A DNA stretch of 64,000 bases, taken from assembly GCA_963575745.1 (NCBI GenBank), contig CAUYUJ010000225.1, positions 868,001 to 932,000 of the forward strand, read 5' to 3'. Every line of letters begins with the position of its first letter. The first letter of the stretch is position 1. The position numbers and the translations under genes are program-made. Shown in pieces: positions 9,506 through 62,259 of the stretch. The notes below the pieces were generated by a model. The model worked only from the letters and a program-made list of their open reading frames with translations. It did no database searches and was not told where the DNA came from. This DNA is from Prorocentrum cordatum (lineage: Eukaryota).

Positions 9506-9894
9506 CACTCCCTCCTCCCAACTCCGTACTCCCTACACACCTTCTCTGGCGCAGAAACGAGAAGCGAGAGAGGCCCCCCCTCCCCGGCGCCCTTTCCGGC
9601 GCTGGGACCAATCCCAACCAATGCGAAAAGCAAACTGGGCCCAATCCCAACCATCTTGGGATAGCCCCACAATAGGATTTTAATTGTAGAGAAGCCCAAG
9701 ACGACTGCGAAGACCAAGTGACACTCCTTATGTCAACGCAGAGGATCTGGAAGCCATCATGCGTGCTCGAGTTGGAATTGGTCTCAGTTTTTGGTCTGCG
9801 CACGAGCACTACGTTAAGATGAGCAAGAGGGCACCGGAGCGTAAGCAAAAACGCACCGAATTGCATCGATTCCGAAATATGCAAATTGGTCCTC

Positions 9895-12830
<2,936 letters not shown>

Positions 12831-42424: not shown

Positions 42425-42524
42425 NNNNNNNNNNNNNNNNNNNNNNNNNNNNNNNNNNNNNNNNNNNNNNNNNNNNNNNNNNNNNNNNNNNNNNNNNNNN
42501 NNNNNNNNNNNNNNNNNNNNNNNN
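42425..42524. other. Assembly gap (100 N) between (CAT)n and (CCT)n microsatellites
   Basis: Run of N; contiguity across it is not shown by the sequence. Confidence 1.
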
Positions 42525-49500: not shown

Positions 49501-50940
49501 TGATGCCAGTCAGCACGAGGCGCTTGGAAAACAGCTTCCGGAGTTCACCGCGGTAGCCTTCTCGCGTGGGGCGCTGGCGCTACTTCTGGCCGAGGGGAAC
49601 GTTGTTGGCGGCAATGGCAGCTCGCGAGCGGGCAGCTGAGAGTGCTTTGCGCTCATCGCTGAGGCTGGCGTGCGTGGTGTCAGCAGTCGTGGTAAACAAT
49701 GCCATGTCGTTGATGCTGACCGTGTTGCCGTCGATCTTCAGGTGAGGGTGCCCGATCTCGGCGTTCTCGATCAGCATCTTCGCGAGAGGGACATTCTGGC
49801 ACCAGACTGCAAGGGCGATGCTGCGCAACGCAATGGCGCGAGTCTCCTTGGAGGCGCTCGCAGTCTGGGACTTCAGCTCGGACTTCAGTCTTGGCGAGCG
49901 CATCGCGCGCCCGGGCGGCTGCGACTTGCACCGCGACCTTGAAAGCGCGCCATCTAACAATCGGAGTGAGCGGCGTCACGTCGATGGTGGCGAGGATCTT
50001 TTCGATGATGCTTGTAGTGATCCGCGTCGGCGATGTAGGCGGGGACGCCACGCTCGGCGGCTGGCTTGGCTTGCGGCGGCGGACGCGGAGGCGCGTGATC
50101 TTGCGGTCGCTAATCGGGCCCCTGGCGTTCTCGAGGGGGGCGTCGTCGGCGACGTAAATGGCCCCCATGGGAGGCGCGAGGTGGCTCGGCAGGTTGATCA
50201 AGCAGCGGTCGATCGTTGATTCACTCATGTTGCCCGCGGCTCTGCGCGTCGTAGACGTGGAGGTGATCTCGATCATGTCGCGAAACAGCGAGCGCCAAAA
50301 GACAGGATGGCACTGGTATCTCTGCGCAGCGGTGGTGTCGGAGTCGACGGGGGCATTGAATGACTTCCGGGGGAACTCGGACACGTTGAAGTCACGCACG
50401 ACCATGAAGAGGCGGCGTTGAGGCTGTTCGTCAGCATGCTGCCGAAGTACTTGCCATTGGTCGCGGAGGTGGGGACGGTCGGCTGGCGAGAAGCCGTAGT
50501 TGTGGACGTTGAGGATGGTGCCTTCGCACTGGAGGCTGGCATCCGTGACGCGCAGCCAAGCGGCGCGGCCGTGGATGACGACCTCGAACCTGGTATGAGG
50601 CCGTTGTTCAGGTGGTAGCTGTTGCTCTCTCTCTTGTCGCACGGGACGAGGAAGCCGATGCCGCCGGCGTTGGCAACGGGCACATCGTTGGCGATCGCGG
50701 GCGAGTGGAACGGTTTGCACGGGTGCTGGGTCGAATTGGCTAGGAGAATGAGGTCGCCAAGGGATCCATGCGTTTCTTGAACAGCGAGAAGAGCGCGTTG
50801 GCAAAGGCAAGTGGAAGCACGCGACGTTTGTCTTCGCGGCGCTGGTCAGATTGCCCCAGGGGAGCTCGGGTTTTCCAGAAAGCAACGTTGAGGCCGTCCT
50901 GAGAAGGCTGCAGGAGCCACGGGCTCCAGCGGTGGCTAAA
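46542..50940 (-). pseudogene. Element A ORF2: APE endonuclease + reverse transcriptase + C-terminal CCHC; several frameshifts and stops
   Basis: APE: AFWKTRA, GGIGFLV, LNVHNYG, VRDFNV, STIDRCL, ISDRK. RT: SAPGPGGLPY, QQGFVNGRQF, MDIAAAFP, GVAQGWPLSG, GVDDLG, RYLGIYVG. C-terminal CHFGC..DNIQHYLVC; stop TAG at 46542-46544. Confidence 0.9.
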
Positions 50941-51975
50941 GTCACTGCGCAGCCGCGAGGGCGTCCGCGAAGTTGGAGGCGAACTCGGCGTTGATCTGTC
51001 GCTGCTCGTCGTCGGTGAAGCCGCGGTCCATGGCAGCGTTGGACCACTGGATCCCGGTGGGTTCGTCAGCATGGGCGCCGATGAGCAATCGAACAAGAGC
51101 GGCCCCACGATTAGCAATGTAGCCAAGAGTTCTGTGCGCGCGGAGGTCGGCGTCGGGGATGGCGTTCTGCATGATTTTGGCGAGGCGTTTGAGTTGCACT
51201 TCTGTGCGGACGGCTTTCGGGCTTTTGCCTGCTGAAACAAATAGAGGGATATGCACACCATTGCCCAGAGTGATAGTAAAACTGCGCCATTCTTGTTTCC
51301 GTTGCGTAGAGCACTGTGAAGACGCTGAGCACGTGGTTCTGCCACGACGATGCCGCCGCTGACCTGGGACGAGTGACGCTTGGCGGGGCTGGCGGTGTTG
51401 AAGATGACAATGTCTTTGGTGATTTCGGCTTTGGCAAACCATTCTGCGAGGGCGCGCTCGAGCTCGGGCTGGTTGAACTCCTGTGGGCTGCTGCGCCCGA
51501 ACGTTGTGGGGTCGGGGTCCCTGTCCCGCGTGCCAAGGCCCTCGAGGTTGAGCGCGGGTGCCCGTGCTTCTGCGGCTGTGACGATGGCTTCAAGCTTTGC
51601 GACGCTGGTTCTGAGTTCGACATTCTGCTTCTCGAAGTCGTTGGTGCGCTGCGTGACGCTGTGGATGCTGCGCTCCGTGGCTTCGTGACGTTGGTTGAGC
51701 TCGGACGTGATCTTCGTGATGGACGAGAGGAAGTCTTGGCTGGCTTGTGCTGTGACAGCACGTGCTGTGGCTTCGAACTTGGCGCTGGCGTCGGCGATTT
51801 GGGCGGCCATGGTCTCCTCCAGCTGCTTGTGAACGTGAGCGGCTAGGTCATGCACTGCGAGCTTCGCTGCACCGTCATGCCATGGATCTTGTTGACGTTT
51901 GCCACAGTCGAGATCCTGTCCGTTGGGGAGGAAAGCGAGTGGTCCTGCCGCTTGTGGAAAAGCGTGCGTTCCCAT
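50936..51975 (-). pseudogene. Element A ORF1 (coiled coil + L1-ORF1p-like domain), frameshift near 51300
   Basis: Heptad-rich segment ELNQRHEATERSIHSVTQRTNDFEKQNVELRTSVAKLE and C-terminal LFVSAGKS..RTEVQLKRL align with element B ORF1 (LFISPDKN..RREVQCKKL). Start uncertain (ATG 51975 or 52152). Premature TGA at 50942-50944, just before CTT TAG. Confidence 0.75.
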
Positions 51976-52152: not shown

Positions 52153-52174
52153 CTTGAGCCAAAATGGCTACGAA
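52153..52174 (-). other. Genomic copy of the dinoflagellate spliced leader (21/22 match) at the 5' end of element A
   Basis: Minus strand TTCGTAGCCATTTTGGCTCAAG vs DCCGTAGCCATTTTGGCTCAAG; abuts the TSD. Confidence 0.93.
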
Positions 52175-55030
52175 AGGGCAGGAGGAGGAGGAGGAGGGGG
52201 AAGAGGAGGAGGAGGAGGAGGAGGAGGAGGAGGAGGAGGAGGAGGAGGAGGGGAGGAGGGAGGAGAGGAGGGCGGGAGGGAGGAGAGGGGAGGGGAGGGG
52301 AGGGGAGGGGGGAGGGAGGGAGGGGTGATGGAGGGAGGATGGAGAGAAGGAGGGAGGGGGGGGACGAGGAGGGACGAGGATAGGGGGAGGTAGAGGGACA
52401 ATGACCTCGAGATGTGCCACTTCTCGCCGTTGGGGGGGGCTGCAGGGCTGGTTCAACTGGTTCGCCGCCCAGGCCTCGTTCCAACGGGCTTCCGTCGGGA
52501 TCCGCGAGCCGCACGGATCGTTCAGGCCGCAGGACTCGTTTCACAGGGGTCCCGCAAAGTTCGTTCTACAAAGAGGCCCCAGGCCTCGTTCCATTGGGTG
52601 CCCGTCAAGGCAGGGGGCTGCGGGGCTCGTTCCACGGGGGGGCTCGTTCCACAGGGGGACCGGAAGGCTGGGCCCACCGTTGTTCCTGTCTGGGTCCACG
52701 AGCTTCAGGGCACGTTCCACAGAGGCCACAGGGCTTGTTCCATAGGGGTGGGCTGGTTCCACAGAAGGGCCCCCAGGCATGTTCCACTGGCCTCGTGAGG
52801 CCCGCGAGCGCCAACGCTGTTTCGCAAAAGGCCGCGAGGCTCGCTCCACGACGGGGCTCACCGATGGCCGCGGAGGTCGCTTCACTGAGGCTCCAGGGCG
52901 CTCGGCCGCGAGGCTCGTTCCACTGGGGTCGGAGGTCCGCAGAGACCTCCGTGGACTCGAGCGAGTGGCTCTTCGGCTCGCTCCACAGGGACTCTTCTCG
53001 GGGGCCGTGGGTCTCGTGGGGGGCCGGCGAGGCCACGCGAACTCCTGCCGAAGCATGCGGGCCACCGCGGAAGGCCTTGTGAGCATCGTTCGTGAACGGT
53101 CTGGAGAGGATGCTCTTTCGGTCGCGTCCGCGAGCGAGGAGCGCAGGCGGAGACAGAAGCTGTCCGGGGCACGGAAGCAAACCTAATTAGCTGCAGGGCG
53201 CAGAACAGGCCGGCCGGGCCAGGTCGCACAGCGGCCGCTGGGGCCTGGAGAGGATGCGCGCAGCGTCAAGAACTCAACATGGCAACGTCCTGTTTGAACT
53301 CGTCGAGCGTGAGTTTCTTTAAACGCCGCAGCAGCTGGAGTGCGAGCCCAACCCACAATCGGACGAGCAGTGGAGGTATCATGTCGCCTGTGCCCATATA
53401 ACTACGGTTACCCCGCTGTTCCAAAGTGTTCTCCAAGATGGTTCAAGACAGCTCGATCTTATCCTGATCTTGTTCTTTAACCGCTGCGGCTCGCCCCCCC
53501 TTCCACATTCTCCAGCAATGGCCTGCGCCACTTGAACAGAAGGAAACACAATTGAAAATTCATCCTCCTACGCTCTCTCACCATCACTATTTCCCCCCCC
53601 CCGTTCTCCTCTGCATCTGCCCTCCGCGTGCACCAGAGAGCCGATAAGCCAATGCACCAATATGCCGCTCAAGCATATCGGCGCGAAGGAACCAATAAAC
53701 CGATACGCCAATATTTCAATATGCTGTTCACGCCTATCCACTCCAACCTACTCACTCCCCCTCCTCCTCCCCCCCTCCTCCTGCTCCTCCTTCTCCGCAA
53801 CTTCAGCACATGGGTCAGTGTACCAATGTGCCGCTCGAACCTATCCGCGCGAACAAACCAACAAGCCGATACACCGATCTACTAATGTGCCGTTCAAGCG
53901 TATCCCCTCCATATCCCCTCCCTTTCCAGAACGGGACCGGTACGCCGATGCGCCGATATTCCGATATGCCGATATGCCGATACGCAGATCGCGGCAGTCA
54001 GCGCCCTGGCACCAATATGCCGATAAGCTACTAATGCGCTGTTCAAGCCTACCCCCTCCATATCCCCTCCCTTCCCTGAACGGGACCGGTGCGCCGATAC
54101 GCCGATATGATACACCGATATACCGATATGCCGATATGCCGATACACCGATCGCGGCAGTGAGCGCCCTGGCACCAATAGGCCGATAAGCCGATATGCCA
54201 CATTGCACGAAATCTGCATATAGGCATATCGGCGCAACGGCGCCGATACATCGAATCGGCACATCGGCATATCGGCTCGGCGACGCCAAAATGCGAAATC
54301 GGCACGTTGGTGTATCGGCTCCGCTGCGCCGAAAAGGTACACGGGTGCATCGGCGTATCGGCTCAGCAGCAGGGGCGGTTGCTCCATGCGGCCACCCTCC
54401 GCTCTCCTCTGGAGGGCACGCGCGAAGCGCCTTTGGAATATACAAACGTGACTGCACCTCGTTGTTTTATCGAGCGGAAATCTGCACGCCCTGCGCGAAC
54501 TTGGTTGCAGGGGGGACCTCGTGAACTACGAGAGGAACCCTGAGCCCAAGCCCTCTGCAGGGAAAATGGCGGCATCGCGGAAAATCACGATCGGCCCCCA
54601 AACCCACCTGCTCTGCAACATGAGTCGTTCGGGATCGCGCTGTGATGGTCCTGGGGCCCGCCGACATCGGCACCCCGCCCCCAGGAGATCAGCGACGTGC
54701 AAGGACGGGCGCCAGCAGCCCCGCTGGGCGCACGCCTCTGGCCTCCAGTGGGATGGAAGAAGGTGGAGCTCGGAATCGTGGAGGCGCTGAAGGTCGTGCC
54801 CTAGGCCCTGGTGGCGGAGGTCATGGACAGGCCCGCAAAACTACGTGCATAACTTTAACCGAAGAAAGGTGTAAACTAATGCGCTTCGCCGTCGGAGGCG
54901 CCTGCCCCAGGGCGGCTGGAAAATTTATACCCTGACGTGCCACCCTATAGGGATGCAAACTCTCTAGCCGCCCCTGGACGGGCGCCCCCGGATACGGAAC
55001 AGTTTATCTCGTACCGTTCGCCCGCTAGTG

Positions 55031-55199
55031 TTGACCCTGGGTAAGAGTGACCTTTGGTGCGCGGCTTTTTGGAGGGCGCGGGGGGCCAAACCTGGGTGCG
55101 CAAGCCGCTGCTCCTGCTTCGTGTTCAGCCATCTAGGGACCCATCTGCGCCCGCACCAAAATCTCACTCCAGCGAAAGGTCACTCTTACGCCAAGTCGA
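55031..55199. mobile_element. ~170-bp MITE-like element
   Basis: Perfect 15-bp inverted repeat gtaagagtgaccttt (55041-55055) / aaaggtcactcttac (55175-55189); paralogue at ~37500. Confidence 0.65.
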
Positions 55200-56788
55200 T
55201 CGTAAGTACGCGGCTCGCAAGACTGCCCGGTGTGAAACATGATCGACCCACGAACCAGGAAAGGAATATAGAAATGTAACGCATGGCAGCGTTTTCAAAG
55301 ACACCTGATTGGGTGACGGGCACATGCAATGCTGAGTGTATCGATCTTGATGTACCCTGCCGAGGGCTGTGCTGTGCTGCGCCGTGCTGAATTGCGATGT
55401 GCCATGCCGCGATTGTGCTCTGTATATAGCGTCGTGGATCGAGTCCTCCTTTGCATCCGAGTCCTGACCGAACTGATCTGGATCTTAAGCTCGAGCTGCC
55501 TGAACACATAGTAGCTGCCCCAGAGCTAATTGACAAGGGGACGTGCCAGGAGGACGCGCCGCGAAACGTCTCAAGGGACGCGCCAGGCGACGTGCCAGGG
55601 GACGTGCCATGGGGTCGCACCGCGGGACGTGCCAAGGAGACGCGCTACGGAACGTGCCAATGGATGTGCCACGGGATGTGCCAGGGGACGCGCCACGCGA
55701 CGTGCGAGGGGGACTCGCCAAGGGACGCCCCACGGAACGTGCCAAGGAACGTGCCAAATTGCAATGCTGAGTGTATCGATCTTGATGTACCCTGCCGAGG
55801 GCTGTGCTGTGCTGCGCCCTGCTGAATTGCGACGTGCCACGCCGAGATTGTGCTCTATAGCGTCGTGGATCGAGTCCTCCTTTGCATCCGAGTCCTGACC
55901 GAACTGATATGGATCTTAAGCTCGAGCTGCCTGAATACATAGTAGCTGCCCCAGAGCTAATTGACAAAAGGACGTGCCAGGAGGACGCGCCGCGGAACGT
56001 CTCAATGGACGCGCCAGGCGACGTGCCAGGGGACGTGCCATGGGGACGCACCGCGGGACGTGCCAAGGGGACGCGCTACGGAACGTGCTGGGGACAAGCG
56101 TTTCGCTCGAGACATCCTGTCAAAGTTCTCATGCTAGACATCCGCCTGAACGACCTGGACACGAGAAAACAAACGCTTCGCTCAACACATCCTCAACACA
56201 TTCTCATGCTAGACATCCGCCTGGGCGACCTGGACACGTGAAAACAAGTGGTTCGCTCGAGACATCATCAACACACCTTCATGTGAAACGTCCGCCTGGG
56301 TGACGTGGGCACGTGAAAACAAGCGTTTCGCTCGAGACGTTTTCAACACCTCCGCATTCTAGACATCCGCCTGGGCGACCTGTACACGTGAAAGCAAACG
56401 TATCGCTCGAGACATCATCAACGCATCCTCTTGTTAGAGATCCGCCTGGGCGACCTGGACACGTGAAACCAAGACACGTGGAAACAAGCGTATCTCTCGA
56501 GACATTCTCAACACATCCTCATGCTAGGCATCCGCCTGGGCAACCTGGACACGCGCGAACAAGCGTCTCGCTCGAGACTTCCTCAACACATCTTCATGCT
56601 AGACATCCGCCTGGGCGACGAAGGCGCGTGAAACCACGCGTCTCGCTGGAGACGTCCTCAACAAATCCTGGCGCTAGACCTCTGCCAGGGCAACCTGGAG
56701 GCGTGAAACCAAGCGTCTCGCTCGAGACATCCTCAATACCTGGGCACGTCGCTCGTACAAATGGGCGCCACAAGGGTCTCGAGAGAGC

Positions 56789-59700
56789 CTACAGCGCACG
56801 AGGTGCATCGACGAGCGCCATCGCTGCCAGTCGAATGTGAAAGGGGATACGTGCTCATCCCAACCTCCGCTGGGCGAGACCGAACACGCATGGAATTGTA
56901 ACAAGGAGAAGCAAGAACCATCGACCCCACTTGCACGATGGTCGGCGCCCCGTCCAGCCCGAGTCTGGCCGCGACGCTCTCCGAAGCGCCCGCAAGACCA
57001 GCGACGCTCCGCGACCAAAGAATAGGGCATCGAAGGTAATGAGCGAAGGTGTCGCGCTGATGCGCGCACCCGCACTCGACAAGACAGTCACTCATACCCG
57101 CATGGACGCGCAGCCTCGCGGAGGTGAGCCAGCCCCCACAAAGAATCTTTACAACCGCCGACTGCCACGCGGGAGAGAGGGGCTCCAGCAGGGCTCAGAG
57201 CGGAGGCCATGGGGTCCCTCGGATGAGGGGCCAATCACGTCTGGAGCCGCCCCTCGATGGCGAGGTGGAAAGAATCGGGAAAAAGAGCAGCACGGAGCGA
57301 GGAGGCAAGAACACGCTGAAGCTTGAATCGCGAGTGACTGGCGACGGCGGCGGCGCGAGCCTCATTCACTTTTAGACGTGCCTGCGTCGCAGGACCATGC
57401 AGCACACTGTCCACTGGCTGCGCCCCAGGTGGTGGGCGGCGGGCGAAGTCGTGAGCGGCCCTGTCCAGCTACTGAACCGTGGGCCGCAGCTTCCAGAACG
57501 GCGGAGATAGCCACCCCCGTCCAACGTCGAGCAGCGAGCCGTGGGAGCACGCCTCTTCTTGTAACCATCCAATAAGGAATCGCCAGTTAGTCACCGTTTC
57601 CTCCGCCGACCTCATTCATGAGTATAGCCGTGCCACGCGGCATCATAGACATGGGGCGGATGTGCGACCAGTTGGCTAGCGAGAAGATGTCGGCACGAGA
57701 CAAACATTGCGGCGGCAGATGCCACACCTTATGCAGCGCTCAAGACTCCCGCGCCAATGAGACCTTAGGCGTAGGATACTGTTGTTGTAAATGCCCCATG
57801 ACTGGCAACACGTACATGTTATAGATGTCAGTGGCTGTGGACACTGGAGCACCCGACTTGGCGAGCTCCAGCACACGCAACGACCACTTCGCAGCCACCT
57901 TGCGCCAGATACTGCGCTCGTCCGCCGCGGGGCCCACCTGCGCACCCAAGTATCCCCCAGAGTCAGCGATCTTCATGGACGCCCATGGAGGCACGTGCTC
58001 CATAAGCCATTGACGAGTCTCCTTTTCCATCACCGAAGAAAATTCACCCTCAAGCGGAATGATGACGCACTTGCGAAATTTGAGCCCGAGGCCCCCGAGG
58101 GCGTCTGCAGCACGGAAGACACGAAACATATCCTTCAAAAGAGAACGGCGTTGCAGCGTCGCCCCAACATCGTCGGCACAAACACCGACCGCCGAGCGGC
58201 CACATGAGTGAAGCAGAACCTGCATCGCCTGCACGAAAGGGTTCATCGCGATAGCCCAGAGCGCCCCACTGGATGGGCACCCCTGAGCCCAGCAAAAAGA
58301 AATGCACAAGACGTGCTGCTGCAAGCCAGCGGCCTGCACGCATGCCGTCGGCAACCATTGCAGCGAGGCGAGCAACGCGAAGATGCCATCCTCAACCCCC
58401 GCGCGCGAGAGCGACTTGAGAAGCCAGTCGTTCTCCAGGGACGGAAAGGCGCCCCCAAAGTCGTGCAACGCCATAACAGGATGCGCATCTTTACGCTGGA
58501 AGCCACATGCCCCCGCAACTGTGTCCAACAATGTGATATTGTTAAGAAAGTTTCTGCCGACCAGGAAGCCCCTCTGAGCCGCGGGAGAGGTCGCCGCCGC
58601 CGTCCGTGTGAGCTTCATGTTGAAAGCACTCGCCACAAGTTTACAATCAGATTTTTTCAGCGCCAACGCTCTCGTAGTAGATGCCGACCTGAAGGCCCCA
58701 GCGGCGTCGCCCGGGTCCTCCCCCCCCTTTGGTAAGAAAGCCATGAGATGCTCATTCCAGTCCGTCGGCGGTGGAAGACCAGCAGCCAGCTCGACGGCGA
58801 TCTCCTCCAGCGACTGCATGCCCAATGACGACCTGCGCCACGCCTCATACGGTAACCCGTCGGGCCCAGGAGCCGATGGCCGAGCACGACGAGCCGCCTC
58901 CATAAGTCGAGCAGCCGCCGGGGGGAGCACCTCGGAGAAATCAAACTGGGTGCCAAACTTCTCAAGATACTTATCCGAAAGCTGCGCCCAGTTGGAGCAC
59001 CTCGGCTTGTGCTGAAACACGGGGCCCCAGTGGCGACGCAGCTCTGTGACCATGTCTTTCTGCGAGTCCACCACTTCACCATCGCCAGGGAGACGGATAC
59101 CTTGAAGCTTGAGCGCCCGAGCAAAGGGAGTCCACAGCGATGCCCTCCTGCGCAGGGCACGACGTTGTGCATTAATGAATGAGAAGGAAGCTGCATCGGG
59201 TTTAGCACGAGCCTCACGCTGTGCGAGCGCCGCCTCCCGCTCCTCTGAGAAGGCCTGCTGCTCGAGAGTGACAGCACGAGCAAAAGCGATGGTGTCACGT
59301 AGCTCCACTAAGTCCCCAACCACACACACATGCTCGCGAGCAAGAGCCGATGAAGACAGGAGACGCCTCGCAAGTCGCGAATCATCTCTCCACACCGCAC
59401 GAGCCATAGAGCGAAAGACCATTAGTCTCGCTTCCGTCGACTGAGGGTTGCGAACCAATCGAGAACGCACCATCCGAGCGGCCTCCTTCATTATATTCTC
59501 AGTGACCCTCCGCTTGGACGCCGAGGTGAGAGAGTGCCAGTCCACTTCCGACGCCATATTCTTGATGAGCCGAGCATAGTCGGGATCCTGAAAGATAAAC
59601 GATGGAATACGCTGAGTGTCTGGACGCGGCGCCGGCCGCGGCGCCAGAGTAAGCAAGACAGGGGAGTGATCGCTGATGCCCTTCTCGAAGAGAAACCCGG

Positions 59701-60505
59701 GAAAGTCTGGAGTAGAGACCGACATAGTCCATTGAATGGCTTCCCAGCTCTGAGACGATACAAAGACACGGTCAATGTGCGTCAACTTCGGTTGTTGCCC
59801 CTCCTGCGCGACGTAGCGGGTGGGCATCTCATTGTCCACTTCGAGGAGCAAAGCAAATATACGTTTCCATTCAGCTTCAGCCACATGCGGCGCAACGTCC
59901 GAGACAGGCCTGCGACGGTCGATCTCGGGAGCGCGCGGATACATAGGCAGAGCAGCGTAGATATTGAAGTCCCCCAAGAAAATGATAGAAATCCTGTCGG
60001 GCGCCGCGTTTGCGGGCGCCGCGTCTCGAGCGACCCTCTGCCGAAGCGATTGCACCTGTTGTCTCGATATGTTATAATTGTGAACATTGTAAATAACCGT
60101 GGACGCCACAGGACAAGAGTCGTGACTGAAACTAGAAATGCGAAGCCTCTGAATCCTTCCTGGCACCAGCTCCTCATGCCAGAACCTTGCCCGCTGATGG
60201 GCTCCACTCTGAGAACATGGAATGATAATCGACACACCACCAGTATGTCGCTGCGTGCCAACAGAAGAGAAAGCAATATGTAGGATGTGGAGCTTGAACA
60301 TGTCCTGCTGAAGCTCCACCTCCGTAGCGCGGACCTCTTACAGTGCCATGATCGTGCCCCTCGAGAGAAACTGAGACAAGTACTTAATGGTGTGCTGACG
60401 TGTGTGCAGGTCGTGATGCAACAAAGCTCGAGTGTTCCACGTTGCGAACGAAAGCGGGGCCTTCAGCTCACTGGGCGCCTTCCACGGGGCAAAGCGGCGG
60501 CTAAA
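56789..60505 (-). pseudogene. Element B ORF2: APE endonuclease + reverse transcriptase + CCHC; nonsense codons at 60338-60340 and 57740-57742 plus distal frameshifts
   Basis: ATWNTRAL, IMAL*EV (probable LQE with CAA>TAA), GGVSII, YNVHNY, LGDFNI, THIDRVF, ISDHSPV; SAPGPDGLPY, QRGFLVGRNF, HDFGGAFPS, AQGCPSSG, VCADDVG, GYLGAQVG; CLVECGC..DTFAHYLRC. Probable stop TAG at 56789-56791. Confidence 0.92.
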
Positions 60506-61715
60506 GACTCCACGCGACCTTCTCGGATTCACCGAAGAGGCTGTTGAAGGCAGCGACCATGGCATCCTTGTCTAAACCAGCATCATTGATAAGACGATAA
60601 TTCCACTCCAGGGAAGACGCCTGCGTGGGGTCATCTGGGACGAGGATGCGGACGGCTGGGGTCGACGCCCGATATACAACTCCCTGAGATCGGTCGGCCC
60701 GCCATCGACCAGGAAGGTTGGTGCTCTTGACGAGCTCGAAAAGCTTTTTGCACTGAACCTCGCGGCGGATATGTTGCCCGTTCTTGTCTGGACTGATGAA
60801 GAGCTCATGCGCCTGCGACTCGGCATCGCGGGCCTCGAACCTGCGCCATCCTCCACCGCCTGGCAGCTTGAGTGCCTTGTGAGCGTGGACAACATGCTTC
60901 GAAGCCAGCCCAGGCGCACCTTTGAACGCGACCACAAATCGCCGAGAAGGAGAATCACCCACAACATGCCACTGATCATCCTTGAAGCCAGCGGCCTCCA
61001 GCCAGGGAAGAACAGCCTCTTTGACACTGGAAGCAGAGACCGCAGCCTTAGCAGAAGCCACGAAGCAGGTGCGACTAGGCTCCCGCGTGAAGCCCGCGAC
61101 GTCGGCGTAGTCCGACTGCGGGGCGGCCTGCTCACAAAGATGGAGAGTGTGCCTGAGACGATCCATTTCGGCTGCCATTTTGTGATGAGCCTGCTCCAGC
61201 GACGTTTGCCTCTGGTTGAGCTCCCGATGACGAAGGGCAGTCTCCTCGTGCTTGGCCTCCTGCTGCGCCGCAAACTTGCGAAGCGCCGAAGCCGTTTTGT
61301 CCGCCAGCTGGGTGGCCAGAGCAGACGTAGTGTTATTGACAGAGGAAAGGAAATCAACCTTGAAATCCGCCACCAAAGCTTCCAACTCGAACCCGCACAC
61401 GAATGCGTTGGGGTCGAGGGCGACTGGGGTGGCGGTGCCGCCAGTGTTGTTGTCGGTCTCGCCAGGCTTGTTAGTAGCATCCCACGGGTCGCAGGCCTGC
61501 AAGGGATCGACAGGACCTGCAGCCCCAAGACCATCCACCAGCACGTCGGCGTCACTGCCGTCCTCGTCACGGGTCTTGGTGCGCTTGCCCTCAGGGGTGT
61601 CCGTAGGAGACCTTTCACTGGCTGCAGCAGGGGCCCGTTGCGGGCGTCTGGACTTGCGACGGGCAACCCTCTGAGAGCCAGCAGGCTGAGAAGCAGCAAC
61701 AGAATTGGAAGCCAT
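60501..61715 (-). CDS. Element B ORF1, intact 404 aa (basic N-terminus, coiled coil, L1-ORF1p-like RNA-binding region)
   Basis: Open from ATG 61715 to TAG 60501-60503. Lies 5' of the APE-RT ORF, has a heptad-rich middle and is homologous to element A ORF1. Domain identity is inference. Confidence 0.85.
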   Translation of the reverse strand: MASNSVAASQPAGSQRVARRKSRRPQRAPAAASERSPTDTPEGKRTKTRDEDGSDADVLVDGLGAAGPVDPLQACDPWDATNKPGETDNNTGGTATPVALDPNAFVCGFELEALVADFKVDFLSSVNNTTSALATQLADKTASALRKFAAQQEAKHEETALRHRELNQRQTSLEQAHHKMAAEMDRLRHTLHLCEQAAPQSDYADVAGFTREPSRTCFVASAKAAVSASSVKEAVLPWLEAAGFKDDQWHVVGDSPSRRFVVAFKGAPGLASKHVVHAHKALKLPGGGGWRRFEARDAESQAHELFISPDKNGQHIRREVQCKKLFELVKSTNLPGRWRADRSQGVVYRASTPAVRILVPDDPTQASSLEWNYRLINDAGLDKDAMVAAFNSLFGESEKVAWSL

Positions 61716-61882
61716 GACTGCGGGTACAGGGTGCACAGGGAACGAGACGTGACTGACAAGTCAGGAGGCGCTGGCCTCAGCACAGTCGTTAGATATGAGA
61801 TAGCAGCTACGCCCGTGAGAGGCGCACGTGAGATACCGTGGGCCGCGCCTCCCACGGACAAGTCTGAGCGAAACACTTCGGA

Positions 61883-61918
61883 CTTGAGCCAAAATGGCTT
61901 GAGCCAAAATGGCTACGG
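61883..61918 (-). other. Tandem DinoSL (61898-61918) + relict SL (61883-61897) at the 5' end of element B
   Basis: Minus strand CCGTAGCCATTTTGGCTCAAG-CCATTTTGGCTCAAG, exact matches; abuts the TSD. Confidence 0.97.
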
Positions 61919-62259
61919 CTCAATACCTGGGCACGTGAAAACAAGCATTTCACTTGAGAGATCCTCTGAACTCTGGTCCCCAGGAGAGGACAATCTATAA
62001 GACAAAACAAGCGTTTCGCTCGAGACATCCTCAACAAATTCTGAAAAACAAGCGTTTCGCTAGAGACATCCTCAATTTTTAATTCCCCAGCCCTACGCGA
62101 CCTCGTTATTTATCGCAAAAGAAATTCGCCGGCCCATCAGCCGTCAAAACCGGGGGTAAACCTCTAAAAGAGAACCCTGGGCCTGTGCCCTTTCCGGGAA
62201 AAAGCGGCAACGGACTTGTCGGCCCGCCAGGGTGCACGGCGCGCGCCCTCTTCCTTGCG

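Follow-up and report, generated by a model that had tools for sequence, protein, structure and literature searches.

A slippery last codon and a fixed stop between the two reading frames of a dinoflagellate LINE family suggest programmed +1 frameshifting

Two long interspersed nuclear elements (LINEs), termed A and B, lie on the minus strand of a 64,000-nucleotide stretch of Prorocentrum cordatum DNA (contig CAUYUJ010000225.1, positions 868,001 to 932,000; hereafter the window, to whose first letter all positions refer). Both are members of a widespread dinoflagellate family of retrotransposons without long terminal repeats (LTRs), and in both the first open reading frame (ORF1) meets the second (ORF2) at the same heptamer, CTT TAG C. 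Comparison across the family suggests, with a probability that we put at roughly 60%, that a programmed +1 frameshift resembling those of antizyme and of release factor 2 (RF2) takes place at the ORF1 stop and yields an ORF1–ORF2 fusion. From this comparison we infer the actual shift by ribosomes, a frequency at which it would occur and the existence of the fusion protein; the register, the place of the stop, the slippery nature of the codon in front of it and the switch of coding frame can be read directly from the DNA.

A slippery codon and a stop between ORF1 and ORF2

In element B the proposed shifty stop occupies positions 60500..60506 (minus strand), with CTT at 60506–60504 as the P-site codon CUU, TAG at 60503–60501 as the A-site codon UAG, and C at 60500. 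It follows the conserved ORF1 tail GCG TGG AGT (Ala-Trp-Ser; 60507..60515), and the ORF1 ending reported in a preliminary description of this DNA, TGG AGT CTT TAG C with the heptamer at 60506–60500, was confirmed on the minus strand. Translation likewise bore out the claim that ORF2 lies in the +1 frame with no ATG ahead of its ATWN motif: from the TTT at 60505 it reads TTT AGC CGC CGC TTT GCC CCG TGG, or FSRRFAPW, and continues to ...LSFATWNTRAL, free of Met up to that motif. Element A, as described, has the same heptamer at 50935..50941 (50941–50935 in the direction of reading), followed by the peptide FSHRWSPW.

An exhaustive profile search with ORF2 returned 4268 homologues at E ≤ 0.001, and a word-indexed protein search gave four matches, all distant. 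The DNA of relatives was found in metagenome contigs by means of an alignment of four APE endonuclease domains; loci were chosen by two peptide patterns within this domain and thus blind to the junction. Among the 596 pattern matches listed, at least 12 metagenomic loci were confirmed (L001–L012), and scans of prokaryotic genomes and viral contigs yielded 78 and 74 pattern matches, respectively, with no relatives among them. Combined with A and B, the 12 loci give 14 junctions from about 11 lineages, which are not independent of one another. Three close pairs excepted, identity between lineages is at most 42% over the first 260 residues of ORF2. Alignment showed ORF1 to be homologous throughout this set: it is a long ORF in 11 of the 12 loci (131–663 codons, some ending at a contig edge), and in L011 and A it has decayed with the junction kept.

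In all 14 junctions ORF2 is in the +1 frame, the ORF1 stop precedes the Trp codon of the first APE motif by 49–64 nt, and this interval contains no ATG. A stop codon (TAA, TAG or TGA) stands at the homologous place in each of them, namely UAA or UAG in 13 and UGA in one. Aligning the junctions had been proposed as a check on whether CTT, the stop and the register are invariant; the register and the place of the stop proved to be so, but CTT did not. The junction reads CTT TAG C in B and A, TTT TAA C in L005 and L006, GTT TGA C in L007, ATT TAG A in L003, TCC TAA C in L004 and L011, TCC TAA T in L002 and L008, CCC TAA C in L009 and L010, and GGG TAA C in L001 and L012. The last ORF1 sense codon is therefore of seven types, all with identical second and third bases that are followed by the U of the stop, so that two or three anticodon pairs would be retained after a slip by +1. 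Synonymous change of the Leu codon, which had been named as evidence against a shift at CTT, was never seen.

Codons with identical second and third bases account for 0.29 of ORF1 codons, and the chance that every last codon is slippery is 1.4e-6 when 11 lineages are counted and 1.9e-4 when the seven codon types are counted. Six of these seven types are published +1 shift codons of RF2 or antizyme; together they make up 0.112 of ORF1 codons, and nine of 11 lineages use one of them (P=1.2e-7 if the lineages are independent). The stop is followed by C in eight of 11 lineages, compared with a fraction of 0.28 C at ORF2 third positions (P=0.003); a C after the stop is a weak termination context. 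As a string, CTTTAGC is not over-represented in the window (2 occurrences vs 5.9 expected), and what exceeds chance is its placement at the ORF1 stop in both A and B, along with the family-wide pattern. Since CTT makes up 2.1% of ORF1 codons and A and B are distant from each other, with a protein identity of only 25–35%, a shared CTT TAG C is unlikely to have come about without common descent or constraint. Eleven further homologues, available as proteins only, have Phe, Pro or Gly followed by Ser or Asn at the place of the junction—residues picked by eye and weak as evidence—which may fit a U-ending codon whose first two bases are the same, with AGY or AAY next.

The coding frame switches at the stop

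In each of the three close pairs (L005/L006, L002/L008 and L009/L010), third positions take most of the substitutions, those of ORF1 before the stop, in every 150-nt bin, and those of ORF2 beyond it. Over the last 40 nt, L005 and L006 differ by two changes, both of them silent in ORF1 and both altering a residue in the ORF2 frame. ORF1 ends in Trp-Ser-x-stop or Trp-Ser-stop in six lineages, the Ser being encoded by AGT, TCG, TCT or TCC, and the ORF2-frame residue at the Trp-Ser place varies (V, R, R, L, P). The retention of Trp-Ser with varied Ser codons and a variable ORF2-frame residue argues that the ORF1 frame is under selection up to the shift codon. Conservation in the ORF2 frame (...APW, then WN.R) starts directly past the stop.

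The nucleotides around the stop form an invariant block, which extends from –27 to +5 in L005/L006 and from –16 to +4 in L009/L010, the latter pair differing at about one third of aligned positions. Directly 5′ of the site lie a G-rich block and the conserved Trp-Ser tail, both of which one might speculate to be 5′ stimulators. On the 3′ side, 11 folds of the region from +4 to +103, which did not cover pseudoknots, gave no shared RNA structure (z-scores –2.3 to +1.0), and only L002 stood out.

Two other candidates were rejected. A 3′ structure as a general stimulator was discarded for want of a consistent stable fold among the 11, and transcriptional slippage was ruled out by inspection, B having a run of only three T and the TCC sites only two C before the stop.

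A proposed +1 shift at the last ORF1 codon

In the mechanism that we propose, ribosomes would start at the ORF1 AUG and most of them would terminate at the ORF1 stop, releasing the ORF1 protein. A fraction would slip by +1 with the last sense codon in the P site and the stop, usually followed by C, in the A site. In B, peptidyl-tRNA-Leu would re-pair from CUU to UUU and AGC would be decoded next, giving a fusion product that reads ...VAWSL-SRRFAPW.... The shift rate would set the ORF1:ORF2 ratio, as it does for Gag:Gag-Pol in Ty elements. A fusion by +1 shifting at CUU TAG C had been suggested from A and B; the family-wide comparison supports the fusion in the form of a slippery codon followed by a stop, and does not support CUU as such.

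Several points weigh against such a shift. The sample comprises 14 junctions from about 11 non-independent lineages, and the chance of finding only slippery codons rises to 0.025 if TT, CC and GG are the only independent states. The pattern can also be read as a constraint on the ORF2 frame, namely Phe, Pro or Gly followed by Asn, Ser, Asp or Arg, and in several homologues the ORF2-frame similarity (S-G-x-F-S/N) reaches a few codons upstream of the stop. GGG is absent from the published list of antizyme sites (as given in PMC1874602), and the stop is mostly UAA or UAG, whereas RF2 and antizyme use UGA. The lack of a consistent stable 3′ structure among the 11 folds belongs here as well, as does the ORF2-frame ATG that five lineages (B, L001, L002/8, L005/6 and L010) have no more than 70 nt ahead of the stop. 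In most lineages the ORF2 frame is nearly free of stops over all of ORF1, which is not explained by a shift at the ORF1 end and hints at other entry routes. Finally, A and B are themselves dead copies.

Comparison with known systems

The junction of A and B resembles the bacterial prfB site, CUU UGA C, in having CUU in the P site, a stop in the A site, C as the next base and a slip onto UUU, and a G-rich stretch lies a few bases upstream in the LINE. It differs in that the LINE stop is UAG rather than UGA and that CUU is replaced in the relatives. The Shine-Dalgarno stimulator of prfB cannot apply to the LINE, because the host is a eukaryote; nor does the LINE have the autoregulation of a release factor, the shift instead joining two long ORFs of a mobile element. 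In COS-7 cells, CUU-UGA, the RF2 site, is reported to be as effective as the wild-type site (PMC1874602).

Antizyme genes, with UCC UGA U and its variants, offer a further parallel: the shift is tied to the final sense codon of ORF1, this codon has changed time and again while the site has been kept, and conserved sequence lies 5′ of the site. UCC, CCC, UUU, AUU and GUU before UGA are described as natural antizyme sites that arose repeatedly (PMC1874602), and the LINE codons UCC, CCC, UUU, AUU and GUU match them. The LINE differs in that only one of its 14 junctions has UGA as the stop, against UAA or UAG in the other 13, and in that its gene products are unrelated to antizyme; furthermore, no stable 3′ stem was found in the LINE folds, and nothing suggests polyamine sensing.

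The Ty elements of yeast share with the LINE that a mobile element would use a +1 shift for a small amount of a fusion of structural protein and polymerase. Such frameshifting is described as established for Ty1–Ty4 (PMC7175516), and Ty1 shifts at CUU (PMC7175516, PMC5911963). Ty1 and Ty3 slip within an overlap, at a rare sense codon, whereas the LINE would do so at a stop; they are, moreover, LTR elements whose fusion is cut by a protease of their own, and no protease domain was detected in the LINE ORF2.

Among LINEs, those of Paramecium come closest, groups 1 and 2 being alveolate elements with APE and reverse transcriptase and with an ORF2 in the +1 register. Either re-initiation or a +1 frameshift has been suggested for them (PMC5405496), and the idea of a +1 shift in a LINE, of which the preliminary description knew no case, is to that extent not new. 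The account given in PMC5405496 names no shift site and shows no conservation of a slippery codon, and host and LINE clade are different. Our search of open-access papers and preprints found no frameshift site described in a dinoflagellate LINE and no shifty stop in any LINE. Human L1 is likewise bicistronic with an ORF2 that lacks conventional initiation, and an AUG-independent start has been proposed for it (PMC5009743); it differs in having a spacer between the ORFs and is not thought to frameshift. The Dictyostelium elements TRE5-A and TRE3-A are bicistronic LINEs said to need a frameshift, of –1 and not +1 (PMC5911963).

Alternative routes to ORF2

An alternative that we regard as unlikely is termination followed by reinitiation, in which the small subunit would stay on the RNA after ORF1 and restart within a few codons in the ORF2 frame, independently of AUG. 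The ORF2 protein would then be separate from the ORF1 protein, with N-termini at or past SRRFAPWK in B. This would suit the closeness of the ORF1 stop to the start of ORF2 coding in all 14 junctions and needs no conserved AUG, and the conserved nucleotides on either side of the stop could function in tethering. There are also precedents, since an AUG-independent start is favoured over bypassing for the ORF2 of a mammalian LINE in PMC5009743, and reinitiation is offered beside +1 frameshifting for the Paramecium LINEs in PMC5405496. What speaks against it is that it places no constraint on the last ORF1 codon, yet this codon is slippery in 14 of 14 junctions and belongs to the shifty-stop set in six of its seven types. 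Nor does reinitiation require the +1 register, yet the register is invariant, and the excess of C after the stop fits frameshifting better.

We consider it quite unlikely that ORF2 is entered upstream of the stop, be it at an AUG in the ORF2 frame or by +1 slips scattered over ORF1. The AUG could be the ATG at 60563..60565, which lies 62 nt before the ORF1 stop in B, or one early in ORF1 that is reached by leaky scanning. The ORF2 protein would then be extended at its N-terminus by a long stretch without a fixed sequence; a start at the ATG at 60565 would give MPWSLPSTASSVNPR-type N-termini. Such entry, which we rate as equally doubtful whether as a rival to frameshifting or as its complement, would reduce the shifty stop to at most one of several on-ramps.

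The argument for such entry comes from the +1 frame of ORF1, in which stops are far scarcer than after codon shuffling. The observed and expected numbers are 0/10.7 in L001, 0/5.0 in L004, 0/5.0 in L005, 1/6.8 in L006, 1/6.3 in L009, 3/10.5 in L010, 4/17.9 in L012 and 1/6.1 in B (60504–61912, minus strand), with p ≤ 0.006 for each of these eight; L003 and L007 have no such stop either, but are short. As a control, the ORF2 of these loci was read in its own +1 frame, where stops number 1.3–4.4 per 100 codons, about as many as expected. The only +1-frame stop within ORF1 of B is a TAG upstream of the junction (60572..60574), which corresponds to Trp in the 77% identical relative P0158 and is probably private to this copy of B. 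In addition, of five elements with a defined 5′ end, four (B, L004, L010 and L012) have their second AUG past the spliced leader in the ORF2 frame. We judged this proportion not to be significant, because codon make-up alone should by our reasoning favour +1-frame over third-frame ATGs; in L012, the second AUG opens only 14 codons.

Other observations argue against entry upstream. L002 and L008 are not depleted, with 6/7.9 and 5/5.1 +1-frame stops observed/expected in ORF1, and still keep the shifty stop. Before the stop, the periodicity of substitutions gives no sign of constraint on the ORF2 frame, and the amino acids of that frame show none across ORF1. In most ORF1 AUGs, the base at –3 is a purine and that at +4 is G. 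The distance from the stop back to the nearest ORF2-frame ATG ranges from 17 to 248 nt, and the position of this ATG, including that of the ATG at 60565, is not conserved in the relatives; conservation thus lends no support to the alternative start at 60565 that had been offered for B, and the conserved ORF2 ATG that would have told against a frameshift is not there. Moreover, entry upstream accounts for neither the fixed position of the stop nor the slippery last codon.

The two routes could be combined in a bolder view, possible though improbable: the reverse transcriptase would be made only as a fusion through the antizyme-like shifty stop, in an ORF1 that has been cleared of +1-frame stops so as to act as a distributed route to ORF2. 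Early slips, collisions behind a paused ribosome or +1-frame AUGs would then also lead into ORF2; the shifty stop would be the principal on-ramp and the final one, its slippery codon having turned over with the site kept.

That the junction has no function at all, A and B being dead copies with a heptamer inherited or coincidental, is very improbable: the premature TAA and early close of B ORF2, the many frameshifts of A with its TGA before CTT and the lack of over-representation of CTTTAGC would suit this, but the arrangement is kept in relatives with at most 42% ORF2 identity and with both ORFs under purifying selection, the last codon changes only among slippery codons, and the TAA of B is private to that copy.

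Structure of elements B and A

Element B is a full-length LINE insertion that extends from 61918 to 56750 on the minus strand. It is bounded by an 18-bp target-site duplication read from the sequence, the 5′ copy (ACGTGCCCAGGTATTGAG) at 61919..61936 and the 3′ copy at 56732..56749 (both minus strand), and has no LTRs, as befits a LINE insertion. In four run X1 contigs, among the matches listed, the flanks at 56731 and 61919 are joined without element B, and 18 letters fit both sides; such element-less joins may represent an empty site or a paralogous copy of a repeat.

At its 5′ end, B carries relics of the dinoflagellate spliced leader (DinoSL; reference sequence as printed in PMC6050394), one 21-nt copy followed by a 15-nt partial copy (61883..61918, minus strand), which argues that the template RNA of B was trans-spliced and that its host is a dinoflagellate. 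The tandem arrangement probably reflects two successive rounds of trans-splicing of the template RNA, and the B lineage has passed through at least two rounds of retroposition. The window holds three DinoSL matches vs 0.02 expected, including a relic at the 5′ end of element A (52153..52168, minus strand). Relics also lie upstream of ORF1 in four of the metagenomic loci (L002, 29–43; L004, 16–30; L010, 11–25; L012, 625–639), and the LINE mRNA of this family is itself trans-spliced, with the spliced leader at its 5′ end. All relics are at element 5′ ends and none precedes ORF2; an internal spliced-leader acceptor giving rise to a separate ORF2 mRNA, an arrangement that had been raised as a counterargument to frameshifting, thus found no support.

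The ORF1 frame of B is open from 61760, and from the first ATG past the spliced leader, at 61715, it comprises 404 codons (60504..61715, minus strand). Its product matched no Pfam family, and the ORF1 products of the metagenomic relatives are its homologues (B vs L002, E=2e-21). ORF2 (57743..60505, minus strand, +1 frame) encodes an APE endonuclease and a reverse transcriptase. The latter was recognized by an RVT_1 match of 37 bits vs a cut-off of 29.6. For the endonuclease, the Exo_endo_phos match, on the part after an internal TAA, scored 19.9 and thus below its cut-off of 24.5; the assignment comes from the catalytic columns W23, N24, E57, D179, N181, S278, D279 and H280, which are invariant in an alignment of B with eight homologues. 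RVT_1 and Exo_endo_phos were the only domains found in ORF2 of B, and a protease domain was not detected there.

The TAA in question is in frame, at 60340–60338. The equivalent codon is CAA in all four X1 contigs that cover the site, and the residue is Gln in eight of eight aligned homologues; the TAA is private to this copy of B. ORF2 of B also closes early, at 57742–57740, the homologues extending further as judged by eye.

A protein carrying the source name Prorocentrum cordatum is 81–91% identical to B. P0014, which bears that source name, matches the window at about 60470–61240 (minus strand), and its gene model joins ORF1 (...EARDAESQA) straight to ORF2 (PSELKAPLSFATWN...), omitting the ORF1 tail and the junction. 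This fusion could stem from an annotation intron that bridges the frames, from a deletion copy or from real splicing. In at least one homologue, the 'M' of the gene model is a GTG codon (P0018 vs L001).

P0158 is a transcript-derived peptide, 77% identical to ORF1 of B, with the EukProt label Pyramimonas sp., a green alga. Past an indel, it switches from ORF1 to the ORF2 frame and goes on into ...GVFSRRFAPWKAP. The peptide could come from dinoflagellate contamination of that transcriptome or from a shared element, and it shows that such elements are transcribed somewhere.

Element A is heavily decayed, and frameshifts break its ORF1. The best-conserved block of the DNA alignment between A and B is CTTTAGCC.CCGCT.....CCCGTGG. 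A TGA precedes the CTT of A at 50942..50944 (minus strand) and occupies the place of the conserved Trp codon before the last ORF1 codon; it is probably a decay mutation from TGG to TGA.

Implications

How the second ORF of a LINE is translated is a long-standing question, and few elements have been studied by experiment. The present family offers a compact junction with natural site variants in both the codon (CUU, UUU, GUU, AUU, UCC, CCC, GGG) and the stop (UAA, UAG, UGA), and this natural series makes the question directly testable. If a +1 shift at the ORF1 stop does occur, it would be the LINE counterpart of Gag-Pol frameshifting, and it would extend the shifty stop of antizyme and RF2 to mobile elements and to dinoflagellates, whose gene control is described as mostly post-transcriptional (PMC12787238). 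It would also supply annotation with a rule for joining ORF1 and ORF2 of dinoflagellate LINEs, in place of invented introns or start codons.

Surroundings of element B and other features of the window

The depth of run X1 contigs reaches thousands to tens of thousands at 54900–57000 and 61593–62000, and is about 30–60 over the body of the LINE. This extreme depth, together with many internal joints, argues that B was inserted into or beside a repeat of very high copy number. Elsewhere in the window, 100 N at 42425–42524 mark an assembly gap, and positions 9760–10900 hold a long, low-complexity array of direct repeats with periods of 9 to 12, which contains ORFs on both strands.

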